NCBI GenBank assembly: GCA_041665345.1
Contig: JBAYJA010000002.1
Coordinates: forward strand, 18,649-82,648
Direction of reading: 5' to 3'
From: Patescibacteria group bacterium
GTDB taxonomy: Bacteria; Patescibacteriota; Patescibacteriia; PEXW01
Length of the DNA: 64,000 nucleotides
The translations under genes and the position numbers were made by a program. Below, in pieces: positions 4,287 through 59,946 of the stretch; position 1 is the stretch's first letter; every line of letters begins with the position of its first letter. Under the pieces are notes generated by a model. The model was given only the letters and a program-made list of their open reading frames with translations, ran no database searches and was not told where the DNA came from.

Positions 4287-4380
4287 CAGTTTAGATTGAA
4301 GGTTTGGTTTTCGATAGCGGTATTGGTAGAAGATAGAGGTAATAAAGAAGTGGAAATACGAAAAGCATGATTGTGCAACG

Positions 4381-4458
4381 TCTCCCTCGCCCGCTGAGGG
4401 AGAGGGAACAAGGGAGAGGGGAGGTTTGGATAATAACCCCCTCCTTTCCAAGGAGGGG
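4381..4458. repeat. Two GC-rich hairpins downstream of pilC (TCTCCCTC-N7-GAGGGAGA and CCCCTCC-TTTCCAA-GGAGGGG)
   Basis: Perfect 8-bp and 7-bp stems at 4381-4403 and 4438-4458. Same stem/loop family as 46909-46929 and 1845-1861. Confidence 0.6.
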
Positions 4459-4695
4459 CTAGGGGTGGTTCTTACTTCCCACAAGGAATCGCCAGCGCGC
4501 TAGCTAGCAACCCCCTACATACAGTCCCCGCAAAACCTGGTATACTATTCACATATCCTTGTCGTGGCATGCAGGCTTGTTCCCTCACTCTCGTGGGGGG
4601 TCTAGGAGATGGGTGGTGCAGTACTGATCACTGATCCCCTTTACCCAAGCCTTCATCAATTTTCCACGGATACCCTGAAGGGAGGTGACAATGAC

Positions 4696-5301: not shown

Positions 5302-5416
5302 TCTTGATGTTAGTGAAACCAAAGAAGGACCCAGCGGTCCTTTTTTGGCATACTCATCCATAGAGTAAAAAGTTTTTTTAATAGCAATACGAGTGCCTTT
5401 GTATTATACTAGTAGC

Positions 5417-5977: not shown

Positions 5978-5980
5978 GCT

Positions 5981-7555
5981 ATGATGACGTACCTCCGCTA
6001 CTGGTTGCCGGTGGGTTTTCTGCTAATCGCAGTAGCTGCAGGTTGGTTCCTGCCAAGTTTTACCAGTAAATGGCCTTTGGTGGTCATGGGGTTTTTGCTG
6101 CTTCCTCTCGCATGGTCGTTTCATTATTTGGTAAAAATTAAGTTTTCCTGGCGAGAACCGGCGGTGTACTTGTGGCTGAGTGTGGGTTTGGGGCTAATCA
6201 GCAGTGCTCTAGCTGCAAATCCATATTTGGCACTGCGGGGTTGGTTGGTGTTCTTGGCTGGGGTGGTTGTGTACTTTTTGGTTCGTTCACTAACCCCTGA
6301 GCATAGGCAACCCTTGATGATTGGTATCGTCATTGTCGGTGTGGTGATTGTTGGTTGGTCATATCTCGCCACAAAAACGTCATTGTCTATTCCTTGGGTT
6401 CCTGTAGTTAGCAAAGACCCACTACTCCTGACTGCTGCAGTGTTGCTCCCCTTGGCCTGTGCAATTATTCTGCTCATCAGGGCTCAGGGAAGGGGATTGA
6501 GGGTATTGTTTGCTGCTATAGCCATATTCCTCGTTAGCCCGTGGGTACTCCCAAGCACGTGGCAGGCATGGCATAGTGCCTGGGCAGCGCTCACCCAGCA
6601 AATGAATGTACTGCAACAGATATTTTCTGCACACCCGTTGGTGGGCGTTGGTTCAGGGAACTACACTTTTTACTTTCCCCGGTTTGCGTCGAATGCCTCG
6701 GTATATGCCGAACATGCACCAAGTTCACTAGTAGACGCCATTGTAGGTTTTGGCATACTCCCTATTGCCGCTTTCCTCGTTTTTCTCTTTTTCAGTATCC
6801 AACCACTGGTGGCACAAAAAGCCAAAATGCCTTGGGTATACGTGGCGTGCCTTGGTTTGCTTGGAGCCGTAGCCTGTGTCGTCTTTGTGGATCACCCGGC
6901 TGTGGCACTCAGTTGGCCAATCCTGTTTGGACTCATGAGTTCACCGTTCATAACCCAAGAGGGCTCCAGTCAAGAGACGCGACGAATCTTTCGGCGGTCA
7001 CTTCTTGTTGGTGGTTGGGTGGTAGCACTCCTGAGTCTGGCTATGGGTTTTGGTATTAATCGCTTTGGGCGAGCAGAGCGGGCAGCACAGTCCGGAGACA
7101 CCAAGAGCGCTGCATCGCTCTATGCCTCTGCCCTGCATTTTGATGCTGACCCAATGCAACGTCGGGCATATGCGGAGTCGCTTTGGCTGAATGGACACCA
7201 AAAGAAGGATCTTGCTGAGGCGGAGCATCAAGCCCGTTTAGCCTACCAGTGGAATAGGGAAGACACTTTTGCATACCAAGTCGCTGCTCGAATTGCTTTT
7301 TCAGAGGGCAATAATGCCGAGGCGGAACGGTTATACAAAGAGGTGCTACAACGAGATAGATTTTTTTCCTTAGACGCAGCTATTTCTTTGGCTGATGTGT
7401 ATAAGAAGCAGGGGAAGAAAGTTGAGGAACAACAACTTGTCGAACAAACCCTGGCGCCATTTACTGTAGAGGTAGTGGAAAAAGGCTTTGCTTTTTCAAC
7501 TATCTCCCAGCAACTTGAGCAAATCAAGAAACGTCTTGTAGATCTAAAAAAGTAG
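5981..7555 (+). CDS. O-antigen ligase (Wzy_C) family polytopic membrane protein with C-terminal TPR domain
   Basis: About 10 TM helices. Wzy_C-like loop HPLVGVGSGNY...AEHAPSSLVDAIVGFGIL. C-terminal ~180 aa shows helical TPR-like repeats. Confidence 0.65.
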   Translation: MMTYLRYWLPVGFLLIAVAAGWFLPSFTSKWPLVVMGFLLLPLAWSFHYLVKIKFSWREPAVYLWLSVGLGLISSALAANPYLALRGWLVFLAGVVVYFLVRSLTPEHRQPLMIGIVIVGVVIVGWSYLATKTSLSIPWVPVVSKDPLLLTAAVLLPLACAIILLIRAQGRGLRVLFAAIAIFLVSPWVLPSTWQAWHSAWAALTQQMNVLQQIFSAHPLVGVGSGNYTFYFPRFASNASVYAEHAPSSLVDAIVGFGILPIAAFLVFLFFSIQPLVAQKAKMPWVYVACLGLLGAVACVVFVDHPAVALSWPILFGLMSSPFITQEGSSQETRRIFRRSLLVGGWVVALLSLAMGFGINRFGRAERAAQSGDTKSAASLYASALHFDADPMQRRAYAESLWLNGHQKKDLAEAEHQARLAYQWNREDTFAYQVAARIAFSEGNNAEAERLYKEVLQRDRFFSLDAAISLADVYKKQGKKVEEQQLVEQTLAPFTVEVVEKGFAFSTISQQLEQIKKRLVDLKK

Positions 7556-7590
7556 TTTTCTTTGGGGTTTTCGTGTATACTTTTTGCTGT

Positions 7591-8010
7591 ATGAAAGCAA
7601 TACCAAAAGGTCTCTCCATGGTAAGTCTCGTCCTCATTGGCCTGGTGTTCCTGGCATTGGCTGCTGGGGCGCTGAGTTTGGTTGGCCGGGAACGCGCCAA
7701 GGCGCGGGATGCCCAACGCGTGGCCGATATGGCGCGGCTGCAGGTTGGGTTTTTGCTGCTGTACAATCGGACGGCCAGTTACGCCGGTGCGGCCCAAGGT
7801 GGGTGTGCCACGGTCAATGCTCCGGTTCGTACTTGTAACCTTGCACAAGATTTGACCAGCATCGCTTCCTTCAAAGACCCACGCGGGGGTGACTACCTGG
7901 TGTCCAAAGTGCCAGATGAGAAGACGTACGAAATTTCCTTCACCTTGGAACGTGGCACCTCTGGACTGGTTGCCGGAAAGCATGTCCTAACCCCGGCTGG
8001 GTTGCAGTAA
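7591..8010 (+). CDS. Pilin-like protein with degenerate prepilin N-terminus (no Glu+5)
   Basis: KG|LSMVSLVLIGLVFLALAAG hydrophobic alpha1 followed by an ARDAQRVADMARLQ pilin-like segment. 139 aa. Confidence 0.55.
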   Translation: MKAIPKGLSMVSLVLIGLVFLALAAGALSLVGRERAKARDAQRVADMARLQVGFLLLYNRTASYAGAAQGGCATVNAPVRTCNLAQDLTSIASFKDPRGGDYLVSKVPDEKTYEISFTLERGTSGLVAGKHVLTPAGLQ

Positions 8011-8045
8011 ACAGAAGAGTATTCCCCTCTCCCAGCCTTCCTCCA

Positions 8046-8108
8046 TCCGGGTGAACCCGGATGGAGGAAGGCGTCCCTCTCCCACAGAGTGGAGAGGGTG
8101 AGGAGGTT
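8046..8108. repeat. 16-bp perfect-stem hairpin (CCTTCCTCCATCCGGG-tgaa-CCCGGATGGAGGAAGG) plus adjacent 8-bp hairpin
   Basis: Reverse-complement arms read directly at 8046-8081. Second hairpin CCCTCTCC...GGAGAGGG at 8085-8108. Confidence 0.7.
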
Positions 8109-8205
8109 CCGTGTCCGAGCAGTTTTCACAGTTGCTGTTTTATCCCCTCCCTCGCCTCACCAGAGGAGAGGGTTCGCGCAGCGCGGGGGAGAGGAGAAGA
8201 ATGTT

Positions 8206-8583
8206 ATGTCCACGAAGCGCACATCACAAGCACGAGCTCTGCGGAAGAACCAGACGGAAACTGAGGCCATACTCTGGCAACATCTGCGCGCACATCGCTT
8301 CTCGGGTGTGAAGTTTCGCCGGCAGTATCCCATTGGTCCGTACATTGCAGATTTTTGTGCGCCAAGCTGTAGGTTGATTGTTGAGGTGGATGGGAGTGGA
8401 CATGAGGTGCCGGAGCAGCGCATGCATGATGTTCGGCGAGATACTTGGTTGTCCGAACAAGGGTGGAAAGTATTGCGTTTTTGGAACAATGAAGTTGGAA
8501 GTGAACTTGAAGCGGTGTTAGAGAAAATATTTGAAAGTATCCCCCAGATACAGAACATGGATGCAGAAGGTAAAAATCCCTAA
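8206..8583 (+). CDS. DUF559 endonuclease-domain protein (Vsr-like fold)
   Basis: QARALRKNQTETEAILWQHLR...GWKVLRFWNNEV matches the DUF559 signature. ATG 8206 lies just 3' of the GC-rich hairpin block. Confidence 0.7.
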   Translation: MSTKRTSQARALRKNQTETEAILWQHLRAHRFSGVKFRRQYPIGPYIADFCAPSCRLIVEVDGSGHEVPEQRMHDVRRDTWLSEQGWKVLRFWNNEVGSELEAVLEKIFESIPQIQNMDAEGKNP

Positions 8584-8591
8584 CGAATAAA

Positions 8592-9380
8592 ATGAAAATA
8601 CTCATCCTCACCACCCTCTTCTTCCTCGGCGCCTGCATAGGCAGTTTTTTGAATGTTGTCATTTACCGTCTACCACGCCGGAAGAGTTTTTTGAAAATCA
8701 AAGACCGGTCGTACTGTCCCCGTTGTCGGAGAGGTTTGGAGTGGTACGATCTCATTCCAGTTGTAAGCTACCTGGTGCTCCGGGGGAAGTGCAGGAAGTG
8801 CGGCAAAAAAATTAGTCCCCAGTACATTTTGGTTGAGCTAAGCATGGCTATCCTTGTACCGTTGCTGTGGTGGATGCATGGGACCAGCGTGTACGCACTG
8901 ATTGGTGTTGTGGGTGCCGTGGGATTACTCATCATTGCCTGGATTGATGGTCAACGGAAGGTAGTGCCAGATGCCGTGAGTTTGCCAACTCTGGGAGCGC
9001 TCGTCATCTTGCAGGTGGTGTATGCGTTTGTGGGGACTGATGCGCCCTGGCAGCACTTGTGGCACATTGCTTTAGCTTCCGTCCTTGGTGGGGGTTGGTT
9101 TGCCGCCCAATGGTTCCTTTCCAAGGGGCGATGGGTGGGGTCTGGGGATATCCGTATAGGGGCAATTCTTGGTGCGTATCTTGGCTTGTCCCTGGGTGGC
9201 TTAGCACTCTTTGGTTCGTACATTTTTGGGAGTATCTGGGCGGCGGTGCTGCTTAGCCGTGGCAAGGCGAAATTTGGCACGCAGTTGCCCTTTGGCGTCT
9301 TCCTGGGGCTTGCCGGCATCTTGACGTTCCTCTTTGGGCATGTCGTGGTAGAATGGTACCAGGAGCTCATTGGCTTCTAG
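8592..9380 (+). CDS. pilD: Prepilin peptidase (A24 family) PilD
   Basis: N-terminal CxxC...CxxC (CPRCRRG...CRKCGKK), multiple TM helices and a GSGDIRIG active-site region. Confidence 0.9.
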   Translation: MKILILTTLFFLGACIGSFLNVVIYRLPRRKSFLKIKDRSYCPRCRRGLEWYDLIPVVSYLVLRGKCRKCGKKISPQYILVELSMAILVPLLWWMHGTSVYALIGVVGAVGLLIIAWIDGQRKVVPDAVSLPTLGALVILQVVYAFVGTDAPWQHLWHIALASVLGGGWFAAQWFLSKGRWVGSGDIRIGAILGAYLGLSLGGLALFGSYIFGSIWAAVLLSRGKAKFGTQLPFGVFLGLAGILTFLFGHVVVEWYQELIGF

Positions 9381-9407
9381 TACCATTTCAGTAGTCAAAA
9401 GACCCTC

Positions 9408-10319
9408 ATGCGCAAAGTAGCAGGATTTACCCTTATTGAAGCCCTGGTTGTCATTGCCATCACCGGCATAATGCTAGGTGTGCTTTTGGCTAATTACCGA
9501 AGGTCAAACGAGAATAGTTTGCTGATTCGGGAGGTTGCCAGCGTGATGAGCCACATTCGCTTGGCGCAGGAAACCGCGGCGAGTAGTAAAATAACTGAGG
9601 CTCAAAATAATAATGATGAACTTCGGTTTTGTGAGAATGATATTCACCGTGAGTGTGATGCAGACAGTGACTGTCCTGGATCACCAGGTGTACAAAGATG
9701 TGCATTGATGCCACCTGCTGGAGGTGAGGTCATTAAATTTGATTGTGGATCAAACGAGTATGATTGGTATGCTGACACAGTACAGTGCAAGGCGAATTGC
9801 TTTCTTGGAGCGCATGTTTTTGCTGACGCGGAACTACTCTTAAACGCTTCTGATAACATTATTCACCATGGTACCGATCCTGACGGAGCCGGTGTTCCAC
9901 CGCATCTAGAGGATTATAAGCGAGAACGGCTGGTCTGGGATGCAAAAGTTCAAGTGAAGGATATAAAAATTAGTAATGCGGTTGCGTACGCGCAGTGTAC
10001 CGGACTTGGAGGGAATCGTACTGTTTGGAATGGGAGTTCTACTTTAGCGCCAACGAGCTCTGCGGTGCCTGTTGATCGAGAATTAAGCGCAACTATCCAA
10101 TTTACTTCTGAATCAGGCGACGCATTCTCTGCGAGTATTGGCCGGAAAGTGATTCTGACCGATAATGTCGCTCCAACGTCCGCAGATGGTGCACATACGC
10201 CATGGTCAAAGGTGGAAATATTGATGGGATTGGTCAATCGGACTACTGATTGCCGACTCGTTATAATGACTGATAAAAATGTGTTAACTGATACACCAGA
10301 TGCCGATTGCGCGATCTAA
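9408..10319 (+). CDS. Minor pilin-like protein, Cys-rich (prepilin MRKVAG|FTLIEALVV)
   Basis: Canonical class III signal with Glu+5. About 270 aa extracellular part with 14 or more cysteines. Confidence 0.75.
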   Translation: MRKVAGFTLIEALVVIAITGIMLGVLLANYRRSNENSLLIREVASVMSHIRLAQETAASSKITEAQNNNDELRFCENDIHRECDADSDCPGSPGVQRCALMPPAGGEVIKFDCGSNEYDWYADTVQCKANCFLGAHVFADAELLLNASDNIIHHGTDPDGAGVPPHLEDYKRERLVWDAKVQVKDIKISNAVAYAQCTGLGGNRTVWNGSSTLAPTSSAVPVDRELSATIQFTSESGDAFSASIGRKVILTDNVAPTSADGAHTPWSKVEILMGLVNRTTDCRLVIMTDKNVLTDTPDADCAI

Positions 10320-11415
10320 AAAATTTCGCTTGCCGGCTGGAACCACTCTCTTGGAGGGAATTATTGCCATTGGGGTAATAATCACTGCGGTTGTTGGGTC
10401 TTTGGTACTCATTATGACTACCATTAAGCTTGGCCGAGCAAACCAAGACCGCGTGGTGGCGCAGAATCTAGCGAGGGAAGGTGTGGAGCTGGTGGTGAGT
10501 TTACGGAACAGTGCGTCCCTCATGCGGGCGAGTGATGCATCAGTTTCATGGGATCAATTTTTCACTACATTAGTCCCAAAAAATTACGCGGCTTTGGCTC
10601 ACATGGATGTTGGAGCTGACTTTTTGGGTTTCTATCAAATTACCGGAGACACGCGTTGGTGTTACGAACGTGGCGCAGATGTTACTCCTCCAGCCTGCGG
10701 TGGGTACCCATCGGATAACTGCGTCCGATATGATTCTAACGTCATCACTGGTGTGGATATTGTTGTGAATCCGGGGCAGACCGTTCCTGCAGGAGTGGTG
10801 AATCGATGTGACATCATTGCCCTTGAAAATTACATTTTTGCTGGGTGGGATCTCCCACGGCTCTGTGGTCCGCTCCAAGATGCTTTTCCATATCCAGGTG
10901 TTTCAACAACGGTAGATTGTGACTTTAATGGAGATAACCAGCTAGACATCTCTGACCTCGTCATGATGGTAAACACCATTAATGACGCTTCATACCACTT
11001 GACCACTGGGTTTCCAAAAATGGCAATCAAACCCCCAGGGACGCAGACTGTGGCTGCGCAGTTGGAGATGTTTGTACCAGCCACAATAGATCTCACCTTT
11101 GACCCAAATGAAGCTTGGAATGATTCCCGAGCGAGGGTGCAAAGTTACCTGGGTACCTACATGCAAAACGTTGATGCAAGCAACCCTGCACTTGCTGCAA
11201 CGAAGTACTTCCGAGTTGTTTCAACCCGTGAAGTATGCCGAACCCCTGGTGGGGAGGAAATTATGCCAATGAATAGTAACAATGATTGCAAGGGGGAATT
11301 TGCTGGGGCAAAGAAGGTGGGTGTTTTGGTGACCAGTGAAGTACGCTGGCCAACGCCAACGAGTTCAACCAAAGCAGTGTACCAAACGTATTTGTATGAC
11401 TGGCTCCAGTTTTAA
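10300..11415 (+). CDS. Minor pilin-like protein with dockerin-like Ca-binding loop (prepilin ..LPAG|TTLLEGIIA)
   Basis: Class III signal with Glu+5. Internal DCDFNGDNQLDISDLVMMVNTIND resembles a dockerin/EF-hand calcium loop. Confidence 0.7.
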   Translation: MPIARSKKFRLPAGTTLLEGIIAIGVIITAVVGSLVLIMTTIKLGRANQDRVVAQNLAREGVELVVSLRNSASLMRASDASVSWDQFFTTLVPKNYAALAHMDVGADFLGFYQITGDTRWCYERGADVTPPACGGYPSDNCVRYDSNVITGVDIVVNPGQTVPAGVVNRCDIIALENYIFAGWDLPRLCGPLQDAFPYPGVSTTVDCDFNGDNQLDISDLVMMVNTINDASYHLTTGFPKMAIKPPGTQTVAAQLEMFVPATIDLTFDPNEAWNDSRARVQSYLGTYMQNVDASNPALAATKYFRVVSTREVCRTPGGEEIMPMNSNNDCKGEFAGAKKVGVLVTSEVRWPTPTSSTKAVYQTYLYDWLQF

Positions 11416-12253
11416 TTTTTTTGTCTTTGGCTTTCGGAACCGTCAACGGTCTGGTTTTACGCTTATTGAAGTTATTGTGACTATGGCGCTTTTCTCCATG
11501 ACGGTGCTCATGGCAGTCACATTGCTCGTAGTATTCATTCAGCAGCAGCGAAGAGCGGTTTCCCAAGAGCAACTGCAAAATGATATTCGGGCAGTTATTG
11601 AGCAAATGTCGCAAGAACTTCGTGAAAGCTCTATTGACTATGCATTCTACCAAAGTGAATTCCCATTACCTACTGGCAGACAGCGTCTATTCACTTCACT
11701 TGATGGTCAGGCGAATAATTCGGGTGATAGCTACCTCGCTTTTGTTGATGCCTTTGAACAGCGGATTCTCTATCGTTTTGCCTCGAATACCCTCCAACGC
11801 TGCGTACCCACCATTACTCTCGACTGTACGGATGCAGCTGAGAGTTGGGAAACCGTCACTCCGGTCTCAATGCAGATTACTAACTTCACTTTTTATGTGT
11901 CGCCTTCAGCCGACCCTTTTGCAGGCACTGGTCCGATAAATTGCGGAACACCTCCCGGAGGCGGCGTCACAGGGGTCTACAATGAAAGCATCTGTCGTTG
12001 GGGTGAGCACTGCCAAACAATTGATGGGAATGGCTTGCTAGGAGATAATTGCGCTTTTGGAAAAGGAAATCCACGTGCATGCTATTGCATTCCGCAAAAG
12101 TTTGGTGAAGTCATTGGTCTCCATCCCCGGGTGACCTTCAGCATTGCTGCGCAACGGACAGTAGGCCAGAATACCGTGAGTGATATTTTTCAAACCACCG
12201 TTGCCAGCCGGGTCTTCCAAAACATGCAACAACTGAACCAGTATGCGCCGTAA
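11396..12253 (+). CDS. Minor pilin-like protein (..RSG|FTLIEVIVTMALF)
   Basis: G/FTLIE motif with Glu+5 and a hydrophobic helix. In-frame ATG at 11396, but the leader length is uncertain. Confidence 0.65.
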   Translation: MTGSSFNFFVFGFRNRQRSGFTLIEVIVTMALFSMTVLMAVTLLVVFIQQQRRAVSQEQLQNDIRAVIEQMSQELRESSIDYAFYQSEFPLPTGRQRLFTSLDGQANNSGDSYLAFVDAFEQRILYRFASNTLQRCVPTITLDCTDAAESWETVTPVSMQITNFTFYVSPSADPFAGTGPINCGTPPGGGVTGVYNESICRWGEHCQTIDGNGLLGDNCAFGKGNPRACYCIPQKFGEVIGLHPRVTFSIAAQRTVGQNTVSDIFQTTVASRVFQNMQQLNQYAP

Positions 12254-13520
12254 GCAATTTTCACCAAAGCGAAAGGGTGTCACATTGATTTTAGCACTCA
12301 TGGTCATGAGTGCCGTCATTGCCATTGGGGTGACGATAGTTGCGATTGTCGTTTTCCAAACCCGCATTAATGCAACAACAACTCAGGGGCAGCAGGGCTA
12401 CTACGCGGCGGAATCTGGCATTGAGCAGGCACTCAGCAAAGTCTCAGGACTTCGAAGCGGTACCTTAGCTGCAGCAGAATTGGCTTTACAAGGCTCCCTT
12501 GCGCCAAATGCATCTCCTTTTCCTTTCAATCTTGACCTGAGTACGGCCGTGACAAGTGGAACTGTAACCCAAAAAGAGTTAAAGCAAAATCAAAGTACGT
12601 TTGTGGAAATCTATGATGTTGATGCCTCCATCACCACAAACCTGGGTGCTCCTGGTTTATGTGTTTTTGCTGAAAGTGGCGACACGACCAGTGATGAAGT
12701 CCTTGAAATTAGCTGGGTTGCTTGGCTGCAGACAACTGGGCAAGTTTCTGCAACGCAACGCGTCTTAGCTTCGTATTCTGAATTCTCTACTGAAAATAAT
12801 TGTACGATTGGAGGGGTAACGTACGACGGTTTCGTTGTCCCACTTACCCAATTTTACCCGGCGTTTCCAGGAACGTACGCAGGTTTTCGGATCCGCATTA
12901 CAGCTTTGGCGCCGGAGGGAACGAATGCAAATGGTGATGTTGCAAATCTCACAATCAACAGTTACCCGCAGCTGAATTCCCACCTCCGCATCAAATCCAC
13001 TTCACGCAGCGCGTTCGCTAACCAGCAGCAAGCATTGCTGGCCGTCGTACCCTGGTCAATACCCCTTTCCTCCCTCTTTGACTTTGTCATATTCAGTGAA
13101 AAAGATTTGACGAAAGACAAAGCGCAATCAACGACGGATGAAATTTTGCGGTATGGACCGTACACTGCCCCAGCACCTAACACCCCTACTTTAGTTGGAT
13201 CAGCTGCAATTCAAAATAATGCCGATCCATTAGTGAATCCATTCACTTCATGCGATACTGCTCCGTGTAAATACTATGTTCGTCTGTTGTATACCACTGG
13301 ATATAGCGGGAGCGTTACCTTACCAACATCAGGCGGAACAACGGAAACCGTCAATGCTGTCGGAAGTGGTTCGTGTATTATTACTGATCAATTCACAATT
13401 TCTACAAAGACACCGCCCCCAAGTATCAACATAAACTTTGGAGGAGATACGACGGGGGTGAGCTACGAACTTCTGAATCACCTCACGTATCGTGACCCAA
13501 CCGAAGGACCTTGTCCGTAA
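12243..13520 (+). CDS. Large minor pilin/tip-protein candidate lacking Glu+5 (GspK/PilX-like)
   Basis: KRKG|VTLILALMVMSAVIAIG N-terminal helix with no Glu5. 425 aa. Last gene of the pilin run. Confidence 0.55.
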   Translation: MRRKQFSPKRKGVTLILALMVMSAVIAIGVTIVAIVVFQTRINATTTQGQQGYYAAESGIEQALSKVSGLRSGTLAAAELALQGSLAPNASPFPFNLDLSTAVTSGTVTQKELKQNQSTFVEIYDVDASITTNLGAPGLCVFAESGDTTSDEVLEISWVAWLQTTGQVSATQRVLASYSEFSTENNCTIGGVTYDGFVVPLTQFYPAFPGTYAGFRIRITALAPEGTNANGDVANLTINSYPQLNSHLRIKSTSRSAFANQQQALLAVVPWSIPLSSLFDFVIFSEKDLTKDKAQSTTDEILRYGPYTAPAPNTPTLVGSAAIQNNADPLVNPFTSCDTAPCKYYVRLLYTTGYSGSVTLPTSGGTTETVNAVGSGSCIITDQFTISTKTPPPSININFGGDTTGVSYELLNHLTYRDPTEGPCP

Positions 13521-13521
13521 G

Positions 13522-16484
<2,963 letters not shown>

Positions 16485-16485: not shown

Positions 16486-17004
16486 ATGGACACCCTTTCC
16501 CATGCCTTGTGGCCAGCCGCGCTATTCCCCAACGCGCGGTGGCGCTGGGTGGCTGCACTGTGGGGCATTCTGTCAGACCTAGGGATGGCCGGGCCGTTGC
16601 TGTACGTCATCTCTCAGGACGGTCTACGGCAACTGTGCTGGATAACCCCGGGTTGGGTGTGCAGCGCCGCGATCCCGCACTACAACATCCCAGATGTTTG
16701 GATGCTGCCGTACACCCTGCTGCACAGTTTTGTGCCCTGGGTCATTGTTGGCGTTGGCTTATCCCTGGTTTTTCGCAAACTGTATTTCCCCATAGTTGGC
16801 TGGGGTTTGCACATCCTCCTGGATATGACCATGCATGACGGTGACTATGCCACGCAAATTTTCTACCCATTTTCCAGCTACCACCCACCATTCCTGGTAA
16901 GCTGGCAGGATAGCCGGGTCTTGCTGGTCAATTGGGTTTTGTTGGTAGCTTTGCTTGGGGTTGGTTTTTTCGTGCGAAAACGAAGGAGGAAATCCAACGT
17001 GTAG
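16486..17004 (+). CDS. DUF457/YdjM-like membrane-bound hydrolase family protein
   Basis: MDTLSHALW N-terminus with multi-TM. Paralog of 59482-59946, which carries the RFTHSLL motif. Confidence 0.45.
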   Translation: MDTLSHALWPAALFPNARWRWVAALWGILSDLGMAGPLLYVISQDGLRQLCWITPGWVCSAAIPHYNIPDVWMLPYTLLHSFVPWVIVGVGLSLVFRKLYFPIVGWGLHILLDMTMHDGDYATQIFYPFSSYHPPFLVSWQDSRVLLVNWVLLVALLGVGFFVRKRRRKSNV

Positions 17005-17061
17005 CTCTTTGGTAATGTGTATGCGACGCACTACACGCATGGGAAATGCTATACTTTAGCC

Positions 17062-17346
17062 ATGCAACTCACCCCTGAAGAAGTAGAAAAATTGGCCAAG
17101 CTTGCCCGCCTGGAGCTCACCCCCGGGGTTCGGGAGCAATTTGCTGACCAGCTTTCCAAAATTGTGGAGTACGTGGATCAGGTGCAAGAGGTTGGCAAAG
17201 GCCTTACCGTGCAAACGGAGCGACGGACAGTAGCCGCAGCAGACCTGGCCAAAGATGCAGTTCTGGAAACGGCCACTGAGCCGCTGCTGGACTTAGCGGC
17301 AAAGCTGGAAGGGCGTTCTATTGTTGCTCCGGGCGTCAAGGCGTAA
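17062..17346 (+). CDS. gatC: Asp/Glu-tRNA amidotransferase subunit C
   Basis: MQLTPEEVEKLAKLARLEL... is a typical GatC, and the gene lies immediately upstream of gatA. Confidence 0.85.
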   Translation: MQLTPEEVEKLAKLARLELTPGVREQFADQLSKIVEYVDQVQEVGKGLTVQTERRTVAAADLAKDAVLETATEPLLDLAAKLEGRSIVAPGVKA

Positions 17347-50229: not shown

Positions 50230-50304
50230 GGGTTCGTAGCTCAATGGTAGAGCAGGGGCCTTTTAAGCCCAAGGTTCTGGGTTCGAGTCCCAGCGAGCCC
50301 ACCA
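50230..50304 (+). tRNA. tRNA-Lys (anticodon TTT)
   Basis: Manual cloverleaf. Acceptor gggttcg/cgagccc, D stem gctc/gagc, anticodon loop cTTTTAa, T arm ctggg-ttcgagt-cccag and an encoded CCA. Confidence 0.85.
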
Positions 50305-50522
50305 CGCGTGCAAGCGCCATTCGCCCTCCTCGGGCGTGCTTCGCGTGCCCGATTGCGGGCTTCGGCGCAGCCCGCTTTCCCCGTAAACCCCTTCGGTGTT
50401 TGCGGGGGCCCCATTAAAAATTTAACGAAGCCTCGCTTTGCCCCACAAACCCGTGCTCACTACATTCCGCTTCGTGTTTGTGGGAACCCCCTATCATTAA
50501 GGTTTTTTGGTATACTAAACGT

Positions 50523-51248
50523 ATGTTAGAAAGCAAAGGAGAAGGTGGCCAACAATTCAAAGCACCCGAGGAGGAAGGAAAAAAAGAGAGTAGTTTTTTT
50601 GATGCGCCAATGGATGAAAAAGTTGGTGCACTGAAGACCACGTACCTGAAGGATTTGGCTGAGCTTGTTACTGGTGAAGCAGTGCCAGAATTAACAAAAG
50701 AAGAGGATCCGAATGCATATGAAATCGATCATCATTACGCAAAGGATGAAATAATCGCCGAGTACTTTTCCAGACTCATGAAAGACAAGGTGGTTTTGGA
50801 TCTTGGATGCGGAGTCCAGACTACTGGGTACAAGATCGCAAATTTTTCACATGCTAAAGAATACATTGGCGTGGAGAAGCATTTTGGGAAAAGCGCGTTT
50901 GAAAAAACAGCAGAAACTGCAGCTGGTGAATCAACGCCATTTCAGATTGTACAACAAGACATGGTTGAGTATGTTCAAGATCAGTCGCACTCGGCAGATG
51001 TCATCTTTTTAGTGGGTGTTGACCTCATTATTATTCCTGAAAACGAGTGGGAAAGACTTTTGCAAGGAATCCATCAAACTCTAACTGAGGATGGGCGTCT
51101 GCTCATCGGGGGTGGGATGGGGAAACCATGGCAGACAATTGAGAAATACTTTGTTCAGGACGCTTCGCTGGATGAGGTAAAAGCAAAACCAGAGTACATG
51201 CTTACTTGGATTCCATCAGTATGGAAAAAGAGGATGCACAGCCAGTAG
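50523..51248 (+). CDS. Class I SAM-dependent methyltransferase-like protein (low-GC islet gene 1)
   Basis: Motif I VVLDLGCGVQTTG with a downstream DVIFLVGVD. TATACT directly upstream. Roughly 40% GC. Confidence 0.6.
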   Translation: MLESKGEGGQQFKAPEEEGKKESSFFDAPMDEKVGALKTTYLKDLAELVTGEAVPELTKEEDPNAYEIDHHYAKDEIIAEYFSRLMKDKVVLDLGCGVQTTGYKIANFSHAKEYIGVEKHFGKSAFEKTAETAAGESTPFQIVQQDMVEYVQDQSHSADVIFLVGVDLIIIPENEWERLLQGIHQTLTEDGRLLIGGGMGKPWQTIEKYFVQDASLDEVKAKPEYMLTWIPSVWKKRMHSQ

Positions 51249-51311
51249 TAGTCATTTTGGATTATTTGTAAATAGTGACTCTACCTTTCCTTATCTTAAA
51301 CAGATTTCACT

Positions 51312-52355
51312 ATGATTGAAGGCTCAGGTGAGAATCGTGAACAGTTTAATGCTCCTGATGAGGAGCAAGCTGAAGGAGAAAAATTTCCAACGCTTGTTAA
51401 CCGTAAAGGTGAGCAGCGCATTGTTCGAAGCGCAGAAGAGGCTACTGCCTTAGTTACGGGGAGTAAGGATTGGGAGCGCGGAAATTTTTATCTTCTTGGC
51501 GGAACAAATGAAAAGCTGCGTGACGATTTATTGAAGAGTATAGGTTTGACCTTCGCGGAGCTGTATAAAATCTCTGCACAACACGTGGAAAATGCCCGGT
51601 TAGCGCTAAATAAGGATAGAGAAATACTGTATCTTCAAGAAGGGTCCGAGCAATGGCATGAGGCGGTGAGAAATTATCACTATTTTAACCGGTTGGAAAG
51701 CGAGCAAAGAAAGGAAAGAAATCCAGAAGAAGATTTCCCTCCGCTGTATGCTAAAGTTGAAGGTCTTGAAGCTGAGGTTCTTGAGAAAATTGAAACAACA
51801 ATTGTAAGAATTGCTCATTATATTGGCAAAGATTCACGTGCGTTGCTTGACTCATATGGGAGATTTAATAAAAGTCTCCTTGAGCAGCATGTGGAATTTG
51901 AACCTTTTAATGCAAAGAATTTATACGAGGCGTTCTGTCTCTTTGATTATTATTTTAACTATTCTGATGGTATGAATAAGAAAATCGAAAATGTCATGGA
52001 AAATCACAAGCCAAAAAAAGTAATGAAGTATGAAAAAAATCCACTCCTTAGCCCTTTTACAGAAACATGTAGAAAACTTCAAGCGGAAGGTGCAGAGCAC
52101 ATACCTGCCTGGCTGGCAGAACAAGCAAACATGGCAGGTACATCAGCTGTTTTCAGTGATGCGCAAGAGTTTATGAGTCAATTTGTAAAGGATATGACTA
52201 GCTATAAGGAACGGTATGAGGCTTATATCCTTCAGAATAAGATTGAAAACACACCAGCTTTTCCTGTTGAAATGTCATTCATAACGAATTTTGAAAAGAT
52301 GTCTAAAGAAATTAGCCGTGTTGGAAAGCCAAAGGGTGAATCTGCAGAGGAATAA
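51312..52355 (+). CDS. Hypothetical protein (low-GC islet gene 2), N-terminus related to gene 1
   Basis: 347 aa. N-terminal GSGENREQFNAPDEEQAEGEK parallels GEGGQQFKAPEEEGKKE of the neighbour. Confidence 0.55.
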   Translation: MIEGSGENREQFNAPDEEQAEGEKFPTLVNRKGEQRIVRSAEEATALVTGSKDWERGNFYLLGGTNEKLRDDLLKSIGLTFAELYKISAQHVENARLALNKDREILYLQEGSEQWHEAVRNYHYFNRLESEQRKERNPEEDFPPLYAKVEGLEAEVLEKIETTIVRIAHYIGKDSRALLDSYGRFNKSLLEQHVEFEPFNAKNLYEAFCLFDYYFNYSDGMNKKIENVMENHKPKKVMKYEKNPLLSPFTETCRKLQAEGAEHIPAWLAEQANMAGTSAVFSDAQEFMSQFVKDMTSYKERYEAYILQNKIENTPAFPVEMSFITNFEKMSKEISRVGKPKGESAEE

Positions 52356-52400
52356 TTAGCAGACATAAGGTTTGTTGCATTTTTCTGGTACAATGTATCC

Positions 52401-55100
52401 ATGCCAGATTTCCGACCGGCAACGGTGCCGATAGATGACGTTTTTCACCAGGTTGATGCTTCTAAACGGGGTTTGACCCAGCTTGAGGTTGATGCCCGAT
52501 TGCAGCAGTTTGGACCCAATAAGCTCCCAACCAACGAAGCTTCTTCTTCGGCGCGGACGTTCTTCCGGCAGTTTGAGAGCAGCTTGGTGATTATTATGCT
52601 CATTGCCACGGTGGTGAGTTTTTTCTTAGGTGATAACCTAGACGCTGTGGTTATTCTGGCCGCAGTTTTTTTGAATGTGCTGGTTGGTTTTTTCCAAGAG
52701 CGCCGGGCGGAGCGTGCGCTGGCTGCATTGCAAAAGGTTGCAACCTTCACTTCCACTGTGCTGCGCGATGGGCGGGAGCGGGACATTGCTTCATCCGAGG
52801 TTGTGCCAGGTGATGTGCTGGTGCTCCATGCTGGGCAGAAGGTTGCTGCTGATGCACGGCTGCTGGAAGTGTACGAATTTGAGGCAAATGAATCTGCGCT
52901 GACTGGTGAGTCCGCCCCTGTGGAGAAGCAGGCCGGGGTGCTCCCAGAAGCCGTGACCATTCCAGAACAGTTGAACATGGCTTTTGCGGGCACGGTGATT
53001 ACCCGCGGCCGGGGATTAGCAATAGTGACGACGACGGGTTTGCGGACGGAGCTGGGGAAGATCGCGCAGCTCTTAGATACTACGGTGACCGAGAAAACCC
53101 CGCTGCAACGTCGCTTGGTCAAGCTCAGCCGGAATCTTGCTGCAATTATTCTCGTTGTCGCGGCGCTGGTGTTCCTGCTGGGCTTATTCCGTTTGTACGA
53201 CATCGAAATAATGTTCACCACGGCAGTGGCTATTGCCGTGGCCTCCATTCCCGAAGGTTTAGCCGTGGTGGTTACCATTGCCTTGGCCTTGGGCATGACG
53301 CACATGCTGAAGCAACGCGCCTTGGCCCGGTCACTCCTGGCAGCCGAAGCGCTGGGTTCTGTAACGGTGATTGCGACGGATAAGACTGGAACCGTCACCG
53401 AAGGCTACATGCGTGTGGTGCAAATATTGACGCATGACCGTGCTGTGGGGCACCCGCACCGTGATCCAGGCGAACCTGATCCAACCGCGCTCACTGTGCT
53501 GAAGATCGCCGCCCTGGCCTCAGATGCCACGATTGAGAACCCAGACCGGCCGTTGGAAGAGTGGGACATTCGGGGCAACCTCACCGAACGAGCACTAGTA
53601 CGCGCTGCAGCTGAATCCGGTTTCAACTTGCCGGAGCTACGCCGGCAGTACACCCGCTTGGGTGAAGTACCGTTTGATTCTTCCCGGCGGTTCATGGCCG
53701 CGCTGCTGGAGCGGAAAAATGATGGCACCAGCGTGGTGGTGAAAGGCGCGCCCGAGGTGCTCTTTGCAAATGTGCAGTTCATTGACGAAGATGGGAAGCG
53801 GGTTCCGTTTACTCCAGAACGGAAACGTGAATGGGAAACCCGAGTGCGAGACATGAGTTCCCAAGGGCTTCGAGCTTTGGCTGTTGGTGAAAGGAAGGAT
53901 GTGGCAGGCATTACAGAACTAACTGATGAAAACGCGCTGCACGACCTTACACTGGTTGGTGTGGTTGGTATTCAAGACCCACTTCGGTCAGACGCCAAAG
54001 AAACCATTCGAATTCTCACAGAAGCAGGCATTCGAACGGTCATGCTGACCGGTGACAACCGGGCTACTGCGCTGGCGATTGCCAAAGGCTTGCAACTTGC
54101 GTCAACGGAAGCCGAGGTGATGGACGGCCGGGATTTGGAAGCATTGGATGCCGAAACGTTACAAGAACGCGTGGCGAATATTCGCGTCTTTGCGCGGGTG
54201 AGTCCCAAGGACAAACTTCGTATCATTGATGCATTGCAGGCACGCGGAGAAGTGGTGGCCATGACGGGCGACGGGGTGAATGACGCCCCAGCGCTGAAAG
54301 CTGCCGACATTGGCGTGGCTTTGGGTTCGGGGACAGATGTGGCCAAAGAGGCCGCGGATTTAGTTTTGCTCGATAATAATTTGCGAACGATTAGCAATGC
54401 AGTGTTTGAAGGACGAGTTATTTACCGCAATATCAAGCGGATTGTTCTCTACCTTCTCTCTGGCAGTTTTGCAGAGTTTGTCATCATCTGTGCAGCAGTT
54501 CTGCTTGGTTGGCCTTTGCCCATGGTGGCATCGCAAATTTTGTGGAACAACTTGGTGACCGATGGTCTGCCGACCATTGCCCTAACGCAGGAAACTGAGG
54601 ATGCTGGGATTTTGAAGGAGAAGCCTATTAAACCCAACCAACCCATTGTTGGCCCTTTCACCCTCCGGCTGACCATTGTCATGAGCCTGGTCATCGGTCT
54701 GGGTGCGCTGGCGCTGTTCTGGCTGGGTTGGGACAATGGTCGTAACCTTGCCTACGGCCGAACACTGGCCTTTGCCGCGGTGGGTATTTCTACGTTGCTG
54801 TGCGCGTTTTCTGCCCGCACGCTGCGTCACCCCCTCACGTCCAGCTCACCACTTCGTAACCCATCTCTACTCGTAGCTTTAGGGTTTAGCCTGGGCCTGC
54901 AACTTTTGGCTGTATACCTGCCCCTTGGACAGAAAGTGTTTGGCACGGTGGCACTCAGCCTGGGTGACTGGGTACTGATTTTGGCCTTTGCGGTAATCGT
55001 GGTGGCAATTACCGAGATGAGTAAAGTCTGGTTCCGAAAGCGGGATGTGCCAGTGATAGCCTTTGTGGGGAAGGGGGATGGGGAAGCCGTAAAGCTATAG
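52401..55100 (+). CDS. P-type cation-transporting ATPase (type II, Ca2+/Mg2+-ATPase-like)
   Basis: DKTGTVT phosphorylation site, TGDGVNDAPALKAADIGVA hinge and 10 TM helices. 899 aa. Confidence 0.92.
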   Translation: MPDFRPATVPIDDVFHQVDASKRGLTQLEVDARLQQFGPNKLPTNEASSSARTFFRQFESSLVIIMLIATVVSFFLGDNLDAVVILAAVFLNVLVGFFQERRAERALAALQKVATFTSTVLRDGRERDIASSEVVPGDVLVLHAGQKVAADARLLEVYEFEANESALTGESAPVEKQAGVLPEAVTIPEQLNMAFAGTVITRGRGLAIVTTTGLRTELGKIAQLLDTTVTEKTPLQRRLVKLSRNLAAIILVVAALVFLLGLFRLYDIEIMFTTAVAIAVASIPEGLAVVVTIALALGMTHMLKQRALARSLLAAEALGSVTVIATDKTGTVTEGYMRVVQILTHDRAVGHPHRDPGEPDPTALTVLKIAALASDATIENPDRPLEEWDIRGNLTERALVRAAAESGFNLPELRRQYTRLGEVPFDSSRRFMAALLERKNDGTSVVVKGAPEVLFANVQFIDEDGKRVPFTPERKREWETRVRDMSSQGLRALAVGERKDVAGITELTDENALHDLTLVGVVGIQDPLRSDAKETIRILTEAGIRTVMLTGDNRATALAIAKGLQLASTEAEVMDGRDLEALDAETLQERVANIRVFARVSPKDKLRIIDALQARGEVVAMTGDGVNDAPALKAADIGVALGSGTDVAKEAADLVLLDNNLRTISNAVFEGRVIYRNIKRIVLYLLSGSFAEFVIICAAVLLGWPLPMVASQILWNNLVTDGLPTIALTQETEDAGILKEKPIKPNQPIVGPFTLRLTIVMSLVIGLGALALFWLGWDNGRNLAYGRTLAFAAVGISTLLCAFSARTLRHPLTSSSPLRNPSLLVALGFSLGLQLLAVYLPLGQKVFGTVALSLGDWVLILAFAVIVVAITEMSKVWFRKRDVPVIAFVGKGDGEAVKL

Positions 55101-55921: not shown

Positions 55922-57214
55922 ATGAATGTTCGGATTGCTGACATTGCTGGTTTTGACGGCAAAGAGGTTTCTATCCAAGGCTGGGCCGCCAATGTGCGCT
56001 CCAGCGGGAAGATTGCGTTCCTCCAATTGCGTGACGGCTCAGCTGGCTTGCTGCAAGTTGTCGTGTCGCACGAGGCCGTGGGGGATGCAGTTTTTGCGTC
56101 CGCAAAAGCAGTGACCATTGAGTCCTCGATCATTGTCACCGGTCTGGTGAAAGCTGAGCCCCGTTCACCCGGCGGTTTTGAGTTACAGGCCACCAAGGTC
56201 GAGCTGCTCCAAAAAGCTGAAGAATACCCCATTGGCAAGAAAGAGCATGGTCCAGACTTTTTGCTGGATAACCGGCATCTGTGGATCCGCAGCCCGCGTC
56301 AGGCCGCGATTCTCCGCGTGCGGGACACAGTCATTTGGGCGTTACGGGACTTTTTCCGCAAAGAAGGGTTTATTCTCACGGACACGCCCATTTTGACGCC
56401 CACCTCCTGCGAAGGGACGACGACCCTTTTTGAAACTGAGTACTTTGACCAACAGGCGTACCTCTCGCAGTCTGGCCAGCTCTACCTGGAAGCCTTGGCA
56501 ATGGCTTTGGGCAAGGTCTACGATTTTGGTCCCACCTTTCGCGCGGAAAAGTCCAAAACCCGGCGGCACCTGACCGAATTCTGGATGCTGGACGCGGAAG
56601 CAGCGTACATGGACTTGGAAGCCAGCATGCAGCTGCAGGAGCGGATGATTGTCCATGTTGTCCAAACAGTCCTTACCGAGCGCAAGACAGAGCTCGCACT
56701 CTTGGAGCGAGATGTCACAGCCTTGGAAAAAATTCAATCGCCATTCGAACGCATGACCTACGATCAAGCACTGGCAAAACTCAAAGAACTTGGCTCTGAC
56801 ATCAAATGGGGGACAGACTTGGGTAACGATGACGAGACCATCTTGACCAAAGCCTACGACAAGCCAATTTTCATTACACACTACCCTTCGGAGATCAAAG
56901 CTTTCTACATGAAGCCAGACCCAACGAATCCAAAAGTTGCCTTATGTGCCGACCTCCTTGCCCCGGAAGGGTATGGGGAAGTAATTGGTGGCTCGCAGCG
57001 CATTGATGATTTGCAGATGCTGGAGCAGCGGATTGCCGAGCACAAGCTTCCCAAGAAGGATCTGGAGTGGTACTTGGATTTGCGGCGTTACGGTTCGGTG
57101 CCGCACAGTGGCTTTGGCATTGGCCTGGAGCGCACGGTGACCTGGCTGTGTGGTCTCACTCATGTCCGTGAGTCCATCCCTTTCCCAAGATTGATTAATC
57201 GTCTAACACCGTAA
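55922..57214 (+). CDS. asnS: Asparaginyl-tRNA synthetase
   Basis: Motif 2 FRAEKSKTRRHLTEFWMLDAE and a C-terminal GGSQR...RYGSVPHSGFGIGLER...IPFPR typical of AsnRS. Confidence 0.88.
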   Translation: MNVRIADIAGFDGKEVSIQGWAANVRSSGKIAFLQLRDGSAGLLQVVVSHEAVGDAVFASAKAVTIESSIIVTGLVKAEPRSPGGFELQATKVELLQKAEEYPIGKKEHGPDFLLDNRHLWIRSPRQAAILRVRDTVIWALRDFFRKEGFILTDTPILTPTSCEGTTTLFETEYFDQQAYLSQSGQLYLEALAMALGKVYDFGPTFRAEKSKTRRHLTEFWMLDAEAAYMDLEASMQLQERMIVHVVQTVLTERKTELALLERDVTALEKIQSPFERMTYDQALAKLKELGSDIKWGTDLGNDDETILTKAYDKPIFITHYPSEIKAFYMKPDPTNPKVALCADLLAPEGYGEVIGGSQRIDDLQMLEQRIAEHKLPKKDLEWYLDLRRYGSVPHSGFGIGLERTVTWLCGLTHVRESIPFPRLINRLTP

Positions 57215-57216: not shown

Positions 57217-58608
57217 ATGGAACGCACGCTCGCTGTAGAAACCCCACAACTCGTTGGTCAGGAAGTGAAACTTCAAGGCTGGGTACACAACCACCGGCGC
57301 TTGGGGAAAATGGTGTTCATTGACTTGCGGGATCGCACAGGTTTGGTGCAAGTGCTTTTTGCTGATGATTTGACCGAACCAGCCAATCAAATTCGGCCAG
57401 AGTACGTGGTGGAAATAACTGGCACGGTTGTTGAACGGAAAGGCAAAGGTGCAAATCCAAATCTTCCCACAGGCTTGGTGGAAATTCATGCGAAGTCGCT
57501 CAGCGTCTTGAGTGAGGCGCAAACTCCACCTTTTCCCATCAACGACGAAACCAAAGCTCAGGAGACGAATGAGGAGCTTCGGTTGGAGTACCGGTATTTG
57601 GATTTACGCCGCCAGAGTATGCGGCAGAATCTGGCCTTACGCGCCAAAGTGAATGCACACTTCCGAGCTTTCTTGCAGGAGCAAGGTTTTACCGAAGTAG
57701 AAACACCGTACCTAACCAAAGGCACACCCGAAGGTGCGCGGGAGTTCATTGTGCCGTCCAGGAATTTTGCCGGGAAGTTTTACGTGTTGCCGCAGAGCCC
57801 GCAGCAATTCAAGCAGCTGCTTATGGTGGCTGGGGTGGAACGCTACTTCCAGATTGTGCGGTGCTTCCGGGATGAAGACCAGCGGGGCGACCGGCAGCCA
57901 GAGTTCACCCAGCTGGATATGGAAATGAGCTTTGTAGATGAACACGAAGTCATGCAGTTGGTGGAAGACATGATGATCGCCTTGGTCAAAGCTGTCACAC
58001 CGGAAAAGCACATCACCCAGGTGCCGTTCCCGCGCATTCCATATGTTGAAGCAATGGCCAAGTACAATTCGGACAAGCCAGATATTCGGAAAGATAAGAA
58101 CGATCCAAACGAGCTGGGCTTTTGTTTCATTACTGACTTCCCCTTGTTTGAATATTCGGAAGAGGAAAAGAAGTTGGTTCCGGTGCACCATCTCTTCACC
58201 GCGCCCAAAGACGCTGACCTGGAGTTGCTGGCCACTGATCCAGCCAAAGTCACGGCCAAGCAGTATGACTTGGCGCTGAATGGGTTTGAGGTTGCAGGTG
58301 GCAGTATTCGGAATCACAAACCAGAGGTGCAGCAGCAAATTTTTAACATCCTCAAACTGGCACCCGAAGACGTTACCCGTCGGTTTGGCCACATGCTGAA
58401 GGCCTTTAGCTACGGTGTGCCACCGCACGGGGGGATTGCCCCAGGCATTGACCGGCTGGTTGCGATTCTCGCCGGTGTGCCAAACATCCGGGAAGTCATT
58501 GCTTTCCCCAAGACCGGTGACGCACGCGACCCCATGATGGGCGCGCCAACTGAGCTGCCCGAGCAGCAACTGAGAGACGTGCACATCGCATCCATCAAGA
58601 AAGAGTAA
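57217..58608 (+). CDS. aspS: Aspartyl-tRNA synthetase, bacterial type lacking the GAD insertion domain
   Basis: QLDMEMSF motif 2 region and GGIAPGIDRLV motif 3. 463 aa against ~590 for GAD-containing forms. Confidence 0.88.
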   Translation: MERTLAVETPQLVGQEVKLQGWVHNHRRLGKMVFIDLRDRTGLVQVLFADDLTEPANQIRPEYVVEITGTVVERKGKGANPNLPTGLVEIHAKSLSVLSEAQTPPFPINDETKAQETNEELRLEYRYLDLRRQSMRQNLALRAKVNAHFRAFLQEQGFTEVETPYLTKGTPEGAREFIVPSRNFAGKFYVLPQSPQQFKQLLMVAGVERYFQIVRCFRDEDQRGDRQPEFTQLDMEMSFVDEHEVMQLVEDMMIALVKAVTPEKHITQVPFPRIPYVEAMAKYNSDKPDIRKDKNDPNELGFCFITDFPLFEYSEEEKKLVPVHHLFTAPKDADLELLATDPAKVTAKQYDLALNGFEVAGGSIRNHKPEVQQQIFNILKLAPEDVTRRFGHMLKAFSYGVPPHGGIAPGIDRLVAILAGVPNIREVIAFPKTGDARDPMMGAPTELPEQQLRDVHIASIKKE

Positions 58609-59481: not shown

Positions 59482-59946
59482 ATGGACGCAATTTCTCATG
59501 CCGCCTGGGGAGCGACCATCCTTCGGAATCGGAAATTTGTGGGTTGGGCAGCGCTCACTGGCATTTTGCCAGATTTGATCCCTGCGCTCTACGGCGTGGT
59601 GCGGTATGGGAAGCGCTACTTTACTGATATCATTGATCAGTCCTTCGCTGAACACCCCGGGAACTTTTACATCATCCTGTATCGCTTCACGCACAGCTTG
59701 CTCCCCATTAGTCTTGTATCGCTCGTGCTTTGGGTGGTCGCTCCGGTGTGGCTCCCACTGGTCATTCCGTACTACTTGCACTTGGCCATGGACGTCTTTA
59801 CGCACCGCGGCTTGTGGGCAACGCGCTTGCTCTACCCCGTGTCAGACTGGCATATTGAAGGTTGGAATTGGTGGCAGCGACGCTGGGTGAACATTGGGAA
59901 CTGGAGCGCGCTCGTCATTCTCAATTTGTGGTTCTTCCTTCGTTAA
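59482..59946 (+). CDS. DUF457/YdjM-like membrane-bound hydrolase family protein (paralog of 16486-17004)
   Basis: MDAISHAAWGA N-terminus, LPDL and RFTHSLL motifs, multi-TM. Confidence 0.5.
   Translation: MDAISHAAWGATILRNRKFVGWAALTGILPDLIPALYGVVRYGKRYFTDIIDQSFAEHPGNFYIILYRFTHSLLPISLVSLVLWVVAPVWLPLVIPYYLHLAMDVFTHRGLWATRLLYPVSDWHIEGWNWWQRRWVNIGNWSALVILNLWFFLR

Follow-up and report, generated by a model that had tools for sequence, protein, structure and literature searches.

Why should two adjacent genes with otherwise unrelated products begin with nearly the same acidic segment? This question is raised by a small islet at positions 50523–52355 of a 64-kb window of Patescibacteria DNA (Candidate Phyla Radiation, CPR). 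The window is the whole stretch of DNA that was analysed, 64,000 nucleotides, and forms part of a 1,075,605-bp contig of a metagenome-assembled Patescibacteria genome of ~1.07 Mb. The islet is filled by two open reading frames (ORFs) on the + strand, designated gene 1 and gene 2 (ORF2). An initial annotation of the locus had proposed that the common N-terminal segment might be a targeting or packaging signal, of the kind that loads proteins into injection systems or microcompartments, or else a duplicated module. The similarity between the two N-terminal segments, hereafter called heads, is real and specific to this pair. The genes and their heads are located as follows.

50523–51248, + strand: gene 1, an ORF encoding 241 amino acids
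51312–52355, + strand: gene 2 (ORF2), encoding 347 amino acids
50523–50594, + strand: head of gene 1, residues 1–24, MLESKGEGGQQFKAPEEEGKKESS, with the core QFKAPEEE at 50553–50576 (BLASTP and shuffles)
51312–51383, + strand: head of gene 2, residues 1–24, MIEGSGENREQFNAPDEEQAEGEK, with the core QFNAPDEE at 51342–51365 (BLASTP)

Two unrelated adjacent proteins share an N-terminal head

The gene 1 product begins with MLESKGEGGQQFKAPEEEGKKESSF and the gene 2 product with MIEGSGENREQFNAPDEEQAEGEKF; the earlier transcriptions of both N-termini were accurate, including the longer ORF2 string through ...EEQAEGEK. In a BLASTP comparison, the two proteins align from M1 to residue 18 with 10/18 identities, 25.4 bits and a pairwise E value of 0.001. 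The match runs in register from the initiator methionine and yields the consensus M-[LI]-E-x2-G-E-x3-Q-F-[KN]-A-P-[DE]-E-E-x6-F. The related segment described in the initial annotation is therefore real, and its extent can be defined as the first 18 residues plus F25, beyond which the two proteins are unrelated. A similarity extending to residue ~50 was considered and rejected; the common 'LVTG' is insignificant (E values of 0.1–0.25) and is explained by the conserved residues of each family.

The similar stretch constitutes a discrete 24-residue head in both proteins because position 25 is the start of each family's conserved core. These cores open with (L/F)FD.P in the methyltransferase family of gene 1 and with [FY]-T-L (F25-x-T-L) in the family of gene 2. 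The start codon of gene 2 is unambiguous, with an in-frame stop four codons upstream and no alternative start within the first 55 codons. In AlphaFold2 models, residues 1–30 of gene 1 and residues 1–18 of gene 2 have predicted local distance difference test (pLDDT) values below 50 and are predicted to be disordered. Both heads are acidic, contain glycine and proline, lack a hydrophobic stretch and are predicted to form coil (pLDDT of ~30–40).

The similarity exceeds shuffled and natural controls

The in-register BLOSUM62 prefix score of the two heads is 54, a value attained by 5 of 3,000,000 shuffles of residues 2–30 that kept each head's own composition. The corresponding probability is ~1.7e-6 and remains at or below 0.004 after correction for the 2,556 gene pairs of the window. 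The similarity is far better than that of shuffled controls, the comparison on which the initial annotation had let its claim depend. A composition-matched natural control was provided by the acidic, variable N-termini of the two families, with six methyltransferases and ten proteins of the gene 2 family giving 60 cross-family pairs. Here, the local score of 59 for the window pair compares with a next best score of 29 and a median of 20.

When alternative starts were allowed, the pair ranked fourth among the 2,556 window gene pairs, and the top three were prepilin signal peptides or whole-length paralogues. It is the only pair above a score of 40 that consists of neither paralogues nor signal peptides. 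Approximately 1,000 gene pairs from seven other CPR loci reached a maximum score of 32. A positive control was found in two YdjM-like paralogues at 16486–17004 and 59482–59946, which lie 43 kb apart, have their first 30 residues in common and score 65.

The identity is maintained at the amino-acid level

The two heads are 65% identical as DNA. Over the 18 aligned codons, the bases are identical at 12/18 first, 16/18 second and 7/18 third positions. Within the core (codons 11–18), the two heads agree at 16/16 first- and second-position sites, but 7/8 codons differ at the third. Only two of the nine identical residues other than methionine share their third base. Because positions 1 and 2 of the core are kept and position 3 has diverged, the conserved identity resides in the peptide and does not reflect a recent DNA copy. 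A recent duplication of the head DNA was rejected on this basis, given the randomised third positions and the dissimilar upstream DNA.

A comparison with orthologues points in the same direction. The methyltransferase orthologues of gene 1, at ~60% overall identity, barely align with its head (scores of 11–19). Orthologous heads are unalignable, yet the two window heads are 56% identical, which argues for a constraint on the peptide. The duplicated module that had been offered as the alternative to a targeting signal still stands, with a head that is specific to the pair, in register and held at the amino-acid level.

Gene 1 encodes a methyltransferase

Gene 1 is a divergent class I S-adenosylmethionine (SAM)-dependent methyltransferase of generic fold, as indicated by its profile match, motif I and predicted structure. 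Its product matches the Pfam family PF13649 (Methyltransf_25) over residues 91–191 with 33 bits (cut-off 27). The SAM-methyltransferase motif I that had been read in gene 1 is indeed present, as VLDLGCG at residues 90–96 (pattern hh[DE]hGxGxG), and residues L92, D93, L94, G95 and G97 do not vary across the family. The AlphaFold2 model consists of alternating strands and helices, with a pLDDT of just 63. The top Foldseek matches of this model are all SAM methyltransferases, with E values of 2e-4 and weaker and TM-scores of 0.3–0.4.

Homologues of gene 1 make up a small, apparently Patescibacteria-only family, with five other clusters among 5.8 billion clustered proteins, at 58–62% identity; the named ones belong to Patescibacteria. 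Their neighbourhoods differ, with a HicAB, PemK, deaminase or SWIB gene next to the homologue, and their GC content at third codon positions (GC3) is also below that of their neighbours. Two further assignments of gene 1 were rejected. A PADLOC match to mad2 of the anti-phage MADS system (E = 5.6e-10) is confined to the methyltransferase domain (residues 72–228 versus profile positions 274–431 of 492), gene 2 has no PADLOC match and the neighbours are core genes. An apparent methyltransferase-to-ATPase synteny with the homologue locus L003 is not orthologous, as the ATPases are just 30% identical.

A relaxed six-frame motif scan identified one additional, weaker copy of the core pattern within gene 1.

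50598–50618, + strand: third F-x-A-P-x-[DE]-E copy, FDAPMDE (FFDAPMDE in context)

This copy lies 14 residues past the head motif and falls in the conserved LFDGPIDE segment of the methyltransferase family, in which F26 and D27 are invariant.

Gene 2 encodes an all-helical protein of a small family

Gene 2 has no close homologue in a word-indexed search. An exhaustive HMMER scan of 1.84 billion representatives identified nine relatives at 26–34% identity, which share the motifs RELLYL..G.D.W.E.VNNYWYN, HPLLEPF, LPDWLAEQG.MAG.SA and KIHR. By its sequence, gene 2 is a member of a small uncharacterised family that has so far been found in CPR-type genomes. The AlphaFold2 model is all-α with a pLDDT of 76. 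No credible functional match was obtained in Pfam, PHROGs, NCBIfam or PADLOC, and nothing was retrieved from the PDB by sequence-profile search or from BFVD.

Small CPR-type genomes carry the relatives of gene 2 on their chromosomes, with unrelated gene surroundings. P0012 (locus L111, 6001–7056), one of these relatives, is a compositional outlier with a GC3 of 0.30 versus ~0.55 in its neighbours, and has a MOFRL glycerate-kinase gene on one side and a pyruvate phosphate dikinase gene on the other. The composition and context of P0012 suggest that the gene 2 family moves horizontally among CPR genomes. A pyruvate phosphate dikinase gene also lies ~10 kb from the gene 2 homologue in locus L015. 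In the same locus, a 3.3-kb stretch without a called gene (10943–14271) immediately follows the gene 2 homologue P0017, and a serine recombinase gene is present at 14784–16298.

Both families are compositional outliers with varied neighbourhoods in other genomes as well. No methyltransferase homologue was found within the 6–10 kb fetched on each side of the gene 2 homologues in L015, L111 and L113, and no gene 2 homologue was found near the methyltransferase homologues in loci L003–L014. Among the loci fetched, only this islet carries members of both families together.

No recurrence of the head in the DNA searched and no support for a packaging leader

A six-frame translation of the window contains the exact pattern QFxAP[ED][ED] only in the two heads. 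No further copy of the head occurs in the 64-kb window or in the 10 kb past its end (74 kb of genome), and no homologue of either family carries it. A degenerate DNA pattern for QF[KN]AP[DE]E[DE] gave 35 matches in GTDB (185,579 representative genomes, one per species), 58 in JGI metagenomes and 1 in IMG/VR. Every match falls within a longer reading frame or a short non-coding frame broken by stops, and the totals are close to chance expectation. In these collections, which do not hold the source genome (the window genes themselves were not recovered), none of the matches is placed like a head in an ORF that reads on. None of the GTDB matches has a Patescibacteria title, and the metagenome and viral contigs carry no taxon names. 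A tblastn search of phage genomes with the ORF2 head gave no match. Recurrence, by which the initial annotation had meant to judge the motif, was not seen in the 74 kb or in the three collections.

No gene for a sheath, tube, baseplate, encapsulin or shell protein was detected by Pfam in the window and the 10 kb beyond it. The heads do not resemble the amphipathic helix of a microcompartment encapsulation peptide, as both are predicted coil. They also differ from class III prepilin signals, with no match to PF07963 (N_methyl) and an acidic composition. A literature search on N-terminal, leaderless or disordered signals in Patescibacteria found nothing relevant. Structure prediction, which had been put forward as a further check, gave disordered heads on a methyltransferase fold and an all-helical protein and revealed no amphipathic helix in the heads. 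The proposed injection-system or microcompartment leader is left unsupported by the absence of recurrence in 74 kb, of particle genes and of an amphipathic helix.

The two genes form an accessory islet beside tRNA-Lys

The islet is flanked by two features.

50230–50304, + strand: tRNA-Lys (anticodon UUU), the left neighbour of the islet (ARAGORN; Rfam tRNA, 72.3 bits)
52401–55100, + strand: P-type cation ATPase gene, the right neighbour of the islet (Pfam domains)

Genes 1 and 2 are a two-gene accessory pair of foreign composition. Their GC contents are 0.435 and 0.398, respectively, versus 0.528 for the window, and the gap is concentrated in third codon positions. Their GC3 values are 0.41 and 0.34, compared with 0.58–0.68 for the DnaB gene, the ATPase gene and two genes of the aspartyl-tRNA synthetase (AspRS) type. 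The low-GC two-gene islet beside tRNA-Lys, as first described, is thus borne out. Outside the islet, the window consists of core genome, with a type IV pilus cluster, DNA ligase, gatCA, the S10-spc ribosomal operon, SecY, DnaB, the two AspRS-type genes and ScpAB. Pfam annotation of the 64 kb and the 10 kb beyond also shows ribosomal operons, tRNA synthetases and glycolysis genes.

A tRNA neighbour and a deviant composition, the marks of a tRNA-integrated island, are both present. The islet resembles tRNA-linked genomic islets in its low GC3, its tRNA neighbour and its accessory genes of narrow distribution. It differs from them in its size of just 1.9 kb and in the absence of an integrase and of a direct repeat of the tRNA 3' end. 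No recombinase or integrase ORF occurs between 50305 and 52400, and the window contains no second copy of the 3' 23-mer of tRNA-Lys with up to three mismatches. An integrase-borne island with attachment (att) sites was rejected on these grounds. A blastn search of plasmids with the islet gave no match.

Short repeats are present at the islet edges, and these are better read as similar, putative leaderless promoters than as att sites. Extended -10-like elements were located at three positions.

50508–50516, + strand: TGGTATACT, with its 3' end 6 nt upstream of the gene 1 ATG (read from the sequence)
52386–52394, + strand: TGGTACAAT, with its 3' end 6 nt upstream of the ATPase ATG, marking the right boundary of the islet (sequence and pattern scan)
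17053–17064 (element and ATG): TGCTATACT, ending 6 nt before the ATG at 17062 (pattern scan)

The three genes have the layout TGnTAnAnT, 6 nt and ATG in common (17053–17064, 50508–50525 and 52386–52403), which suggests that leaderless mRNAs are made in this Patescibacteria genome. The sequence TAAGGTTT[T/G]TTG is also common to the regions upstream of gene 1 and the ATPase gene. The element TGGTATACT is likely the promoter of a leaderless two-gene transcript. Genes 1 and 2 are separated by a 63-nt gap without a terminator-like hairpin and are likely co-transcribed.

Gene 1 starts 218 nt past the end of tRNA-Lys. The GC-rich spacer in between (50305–50522, 218 nt) has a minimum free energy of -83.2 kcal/mol (z = -4.2), which none of 200 shuffles equalled. 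It folds into three hairpins, two of which have related stems (CCCCGTAAAC...GTTTGCGGGG and CCCACAAAC...GTTTGTGGG), and it matches no Rfam family. The spacer could be a terminator array, a novel small RNA or the remnant of an insertion site.

Additional observations were made elsewhere in the window. The type IV pilus cluster (window positions 1–13500) looks complete: it encodes ATPases of the PilB and PilT types, PilC, a prepilin peptidase and a number of pilins that bear class III signal peptides. A 79-nt tRNA-Ala(GGC) called by ARAGORN at 3395–3473, with the anticodon at position 40, lies within a PilC/T2SSF-type ORF (3078–4286) and is probably a false positive or an odd overlap. To the right of the islet, two class II aminoacyl-tRNA synthetase genes are arranged in tandem at 55922–57214 and 57217–58608 with 2 nt between them. 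Both contain the tRNA_anti-codon and tRNA-synt_2 domains (AspRS/AsnRS type).

Discussion

The preferred explanation, held tentatively at a probability of roughly 45%, is that the head has a single origin, moved between the neighbouring genes and was selected as a shared short linear interaction motif. The islet, which sits between tRNA-Lys and the P-type ATPase gene in the core region of the genome, would be an accessory operon of two genes with a foreign composition. Copying or recombination would have transferred the 5' end of one gene to the other at a time remote enough for the synonymous sites to have become saturated, and the heads would thereby have become attached exactly ahead of the conserved core of each family. 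Selection acting on the peptide would then have preserved both heads. With the Q-F-x-A-P-acidic-E-E core as a short linear motif, the two co-expressed proteins would be able to recognise the same binding partner or site. This account infers that the heads descend from one ancestor instead of having converged, that a leaderless promoter drives both genes in one transcript and that the head serves as a binding motif.

Several points weigh against this explanation. The skew between codon positions over the 18 codons (6, 2 and 11 mismatches) is modestly significant (chi-square, ~0.04), and the eight-codon core was picked post hoc with the data in view. The DNA upstream of the two starts is not similar (P = 0.59) and retains no trace of a co-copied promoter. 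Each head also shows a weak relationship to its own family: the ORF2 head QFNAPDEEQAEGEK aligns weakly with QPNAGEDKLAVEGIK of P0012, and QFKAPEEEGK of gene 1 aligns weakly with PFNTINPENK of the methyltransferase homologue P0003. The similarity may accordingly reflect a partial convergence of two heads that were already acidic. The head is represented by just two instances in one lineage, and the databases contain no closer relatives in which its evolution could be traced.

A neutral relic is the strongest of the rival explanations, and its probability is low. One gene would have acquired the first ~24 codons of the other by partial duplication or illegitimate recombination, and the resulting functionless similarity would now be decaying. 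The adjacency of the genes, the in-register match from M1 and the existence of just two known copies are consistent with such an event, as are the variable and apparently dispensable heads of both families, one member of which (P0010) is nearly headless. Against it, the synonymous sites are saturated, with third bases common to 2/9 residues, yet 10/18 residues and 16/16 core positions 1–2 are identical. The heads of the methyltransferase orthologues are unrecognisable at ~60% overall identity, and the same loss of likeness would be expected of a head that had drifted neutrally for so long.

An improbable elaboration gives the head a role toward the enzyme encoded beside it, as a docking, recognition or substrate motif of the same-operon methyltransferase or, alternatively, makes it a lineage-specific export or targeting tag of Patescibacteria, with further bearers in the ~93% of the genome outside the search. 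The docking idea arises because the islet holds three F-x-A-P-x-[DE]-E copies, namely the two heads and FFDAPMDE. The enzyme would bind, or methylate within, the acidic motif on its partner, and its own head would serve as a tethered pseudo-substrate or regulator. The pair would then form a horizontally mobile unit of enzyme and substrate, complete in itself and labelled by a common N-terminal peptide.

A targeting, packaging or secretion leader of a larger cargo set, destined for an injection particle, a compartment or export to a host cell, is quite improbable. The head is N-terminal, disordered and common to unrelated adjacent accessory proteins, Patescibacteria are typically host-dependent and ~93% of the 1.07-Mb genome lies outside the search. 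However, the 74 kb searched yielded no third copy, and the 35, 58 and 1 matches in the collections are near chance level and include none that is head-like. No homologue bears the head, the window contains no sheath, tube, baseplate, encapsulin or shell gene, and the head is neither hydrophobic, as a Sec or prepilin signal would be, nor an amphipathic helix.

A chance or convergent likeness of two acidic, low-complexity N-termini is very improbable: heads are acidic and variable in both families, each window head has weak alignments within its own family and the pair was originally picked by eye from many genes, but the shuffle probability is minute even when corrected for all window pairs and cross-family pairs of like composition from other genomes reach at most 29 versus 59.

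The head can be compared with three kinds of known N-terminal or docking elements. Short linear docking motifs occur in disordered tails, as in the N-terminal clamp-binding motif of Hda and the NWETF pentapeptide that tethers CheR to chemoreceptors. The head resembles these motifs as a terminal disordered segment in which a core of a few residues, aromatic and acidic, is conserved and the flanks drift. The likeness extends to the candidate partners, one of which is here the neighbouring methyltransferase. In contrast, Q-F-x-A-P-acidic-E-E fits neither QL[SD]LF nor NWETF, and the conservation extends beyond the typical core of 3–6 residues to M-[LI]-E..G-E at the N-terminus.

N-terminal packaging leaders are found on contractile-injection-system cargo, such as the effectors of the Photorhabdus virulence cassette, and in the capsid-targeting sequence of T4. 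These leaders and the head are alike in being short disordered N-terminal peptides on unrelated proteins encoded side by side. They differ in that no particle genes occur in 74 kb here, that two proteins bear the head and that it measures 24 residues versus about 50. The window heads have no phage or viral match. Class III prepilin signals are, apart from those of whole-length paralogues, the only other N-terminal segments common to proteins of the window. Unlike the acidic head, they are hydrophobic, match PF07963 (N_methyl) and are cut by a prepilin peptidase encoded nearby.

The shared head is a statistically solid and so far private feature of one uncultivated lineage. If it is functional, it would provide an experimental handle on two opaque Patescibacteria families, either as a 24-residue bait or as a candidate methyltransferase substrate. 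If the preferred explanation is true, the islet would represent a clean bacterial case of a short disordered module that moved between neighbouring genes and was then selected. If the genome contains further bearers, the head may point to a targeting pathway that has so far gone unnoticed in ultra-small symbiotic bacteria.

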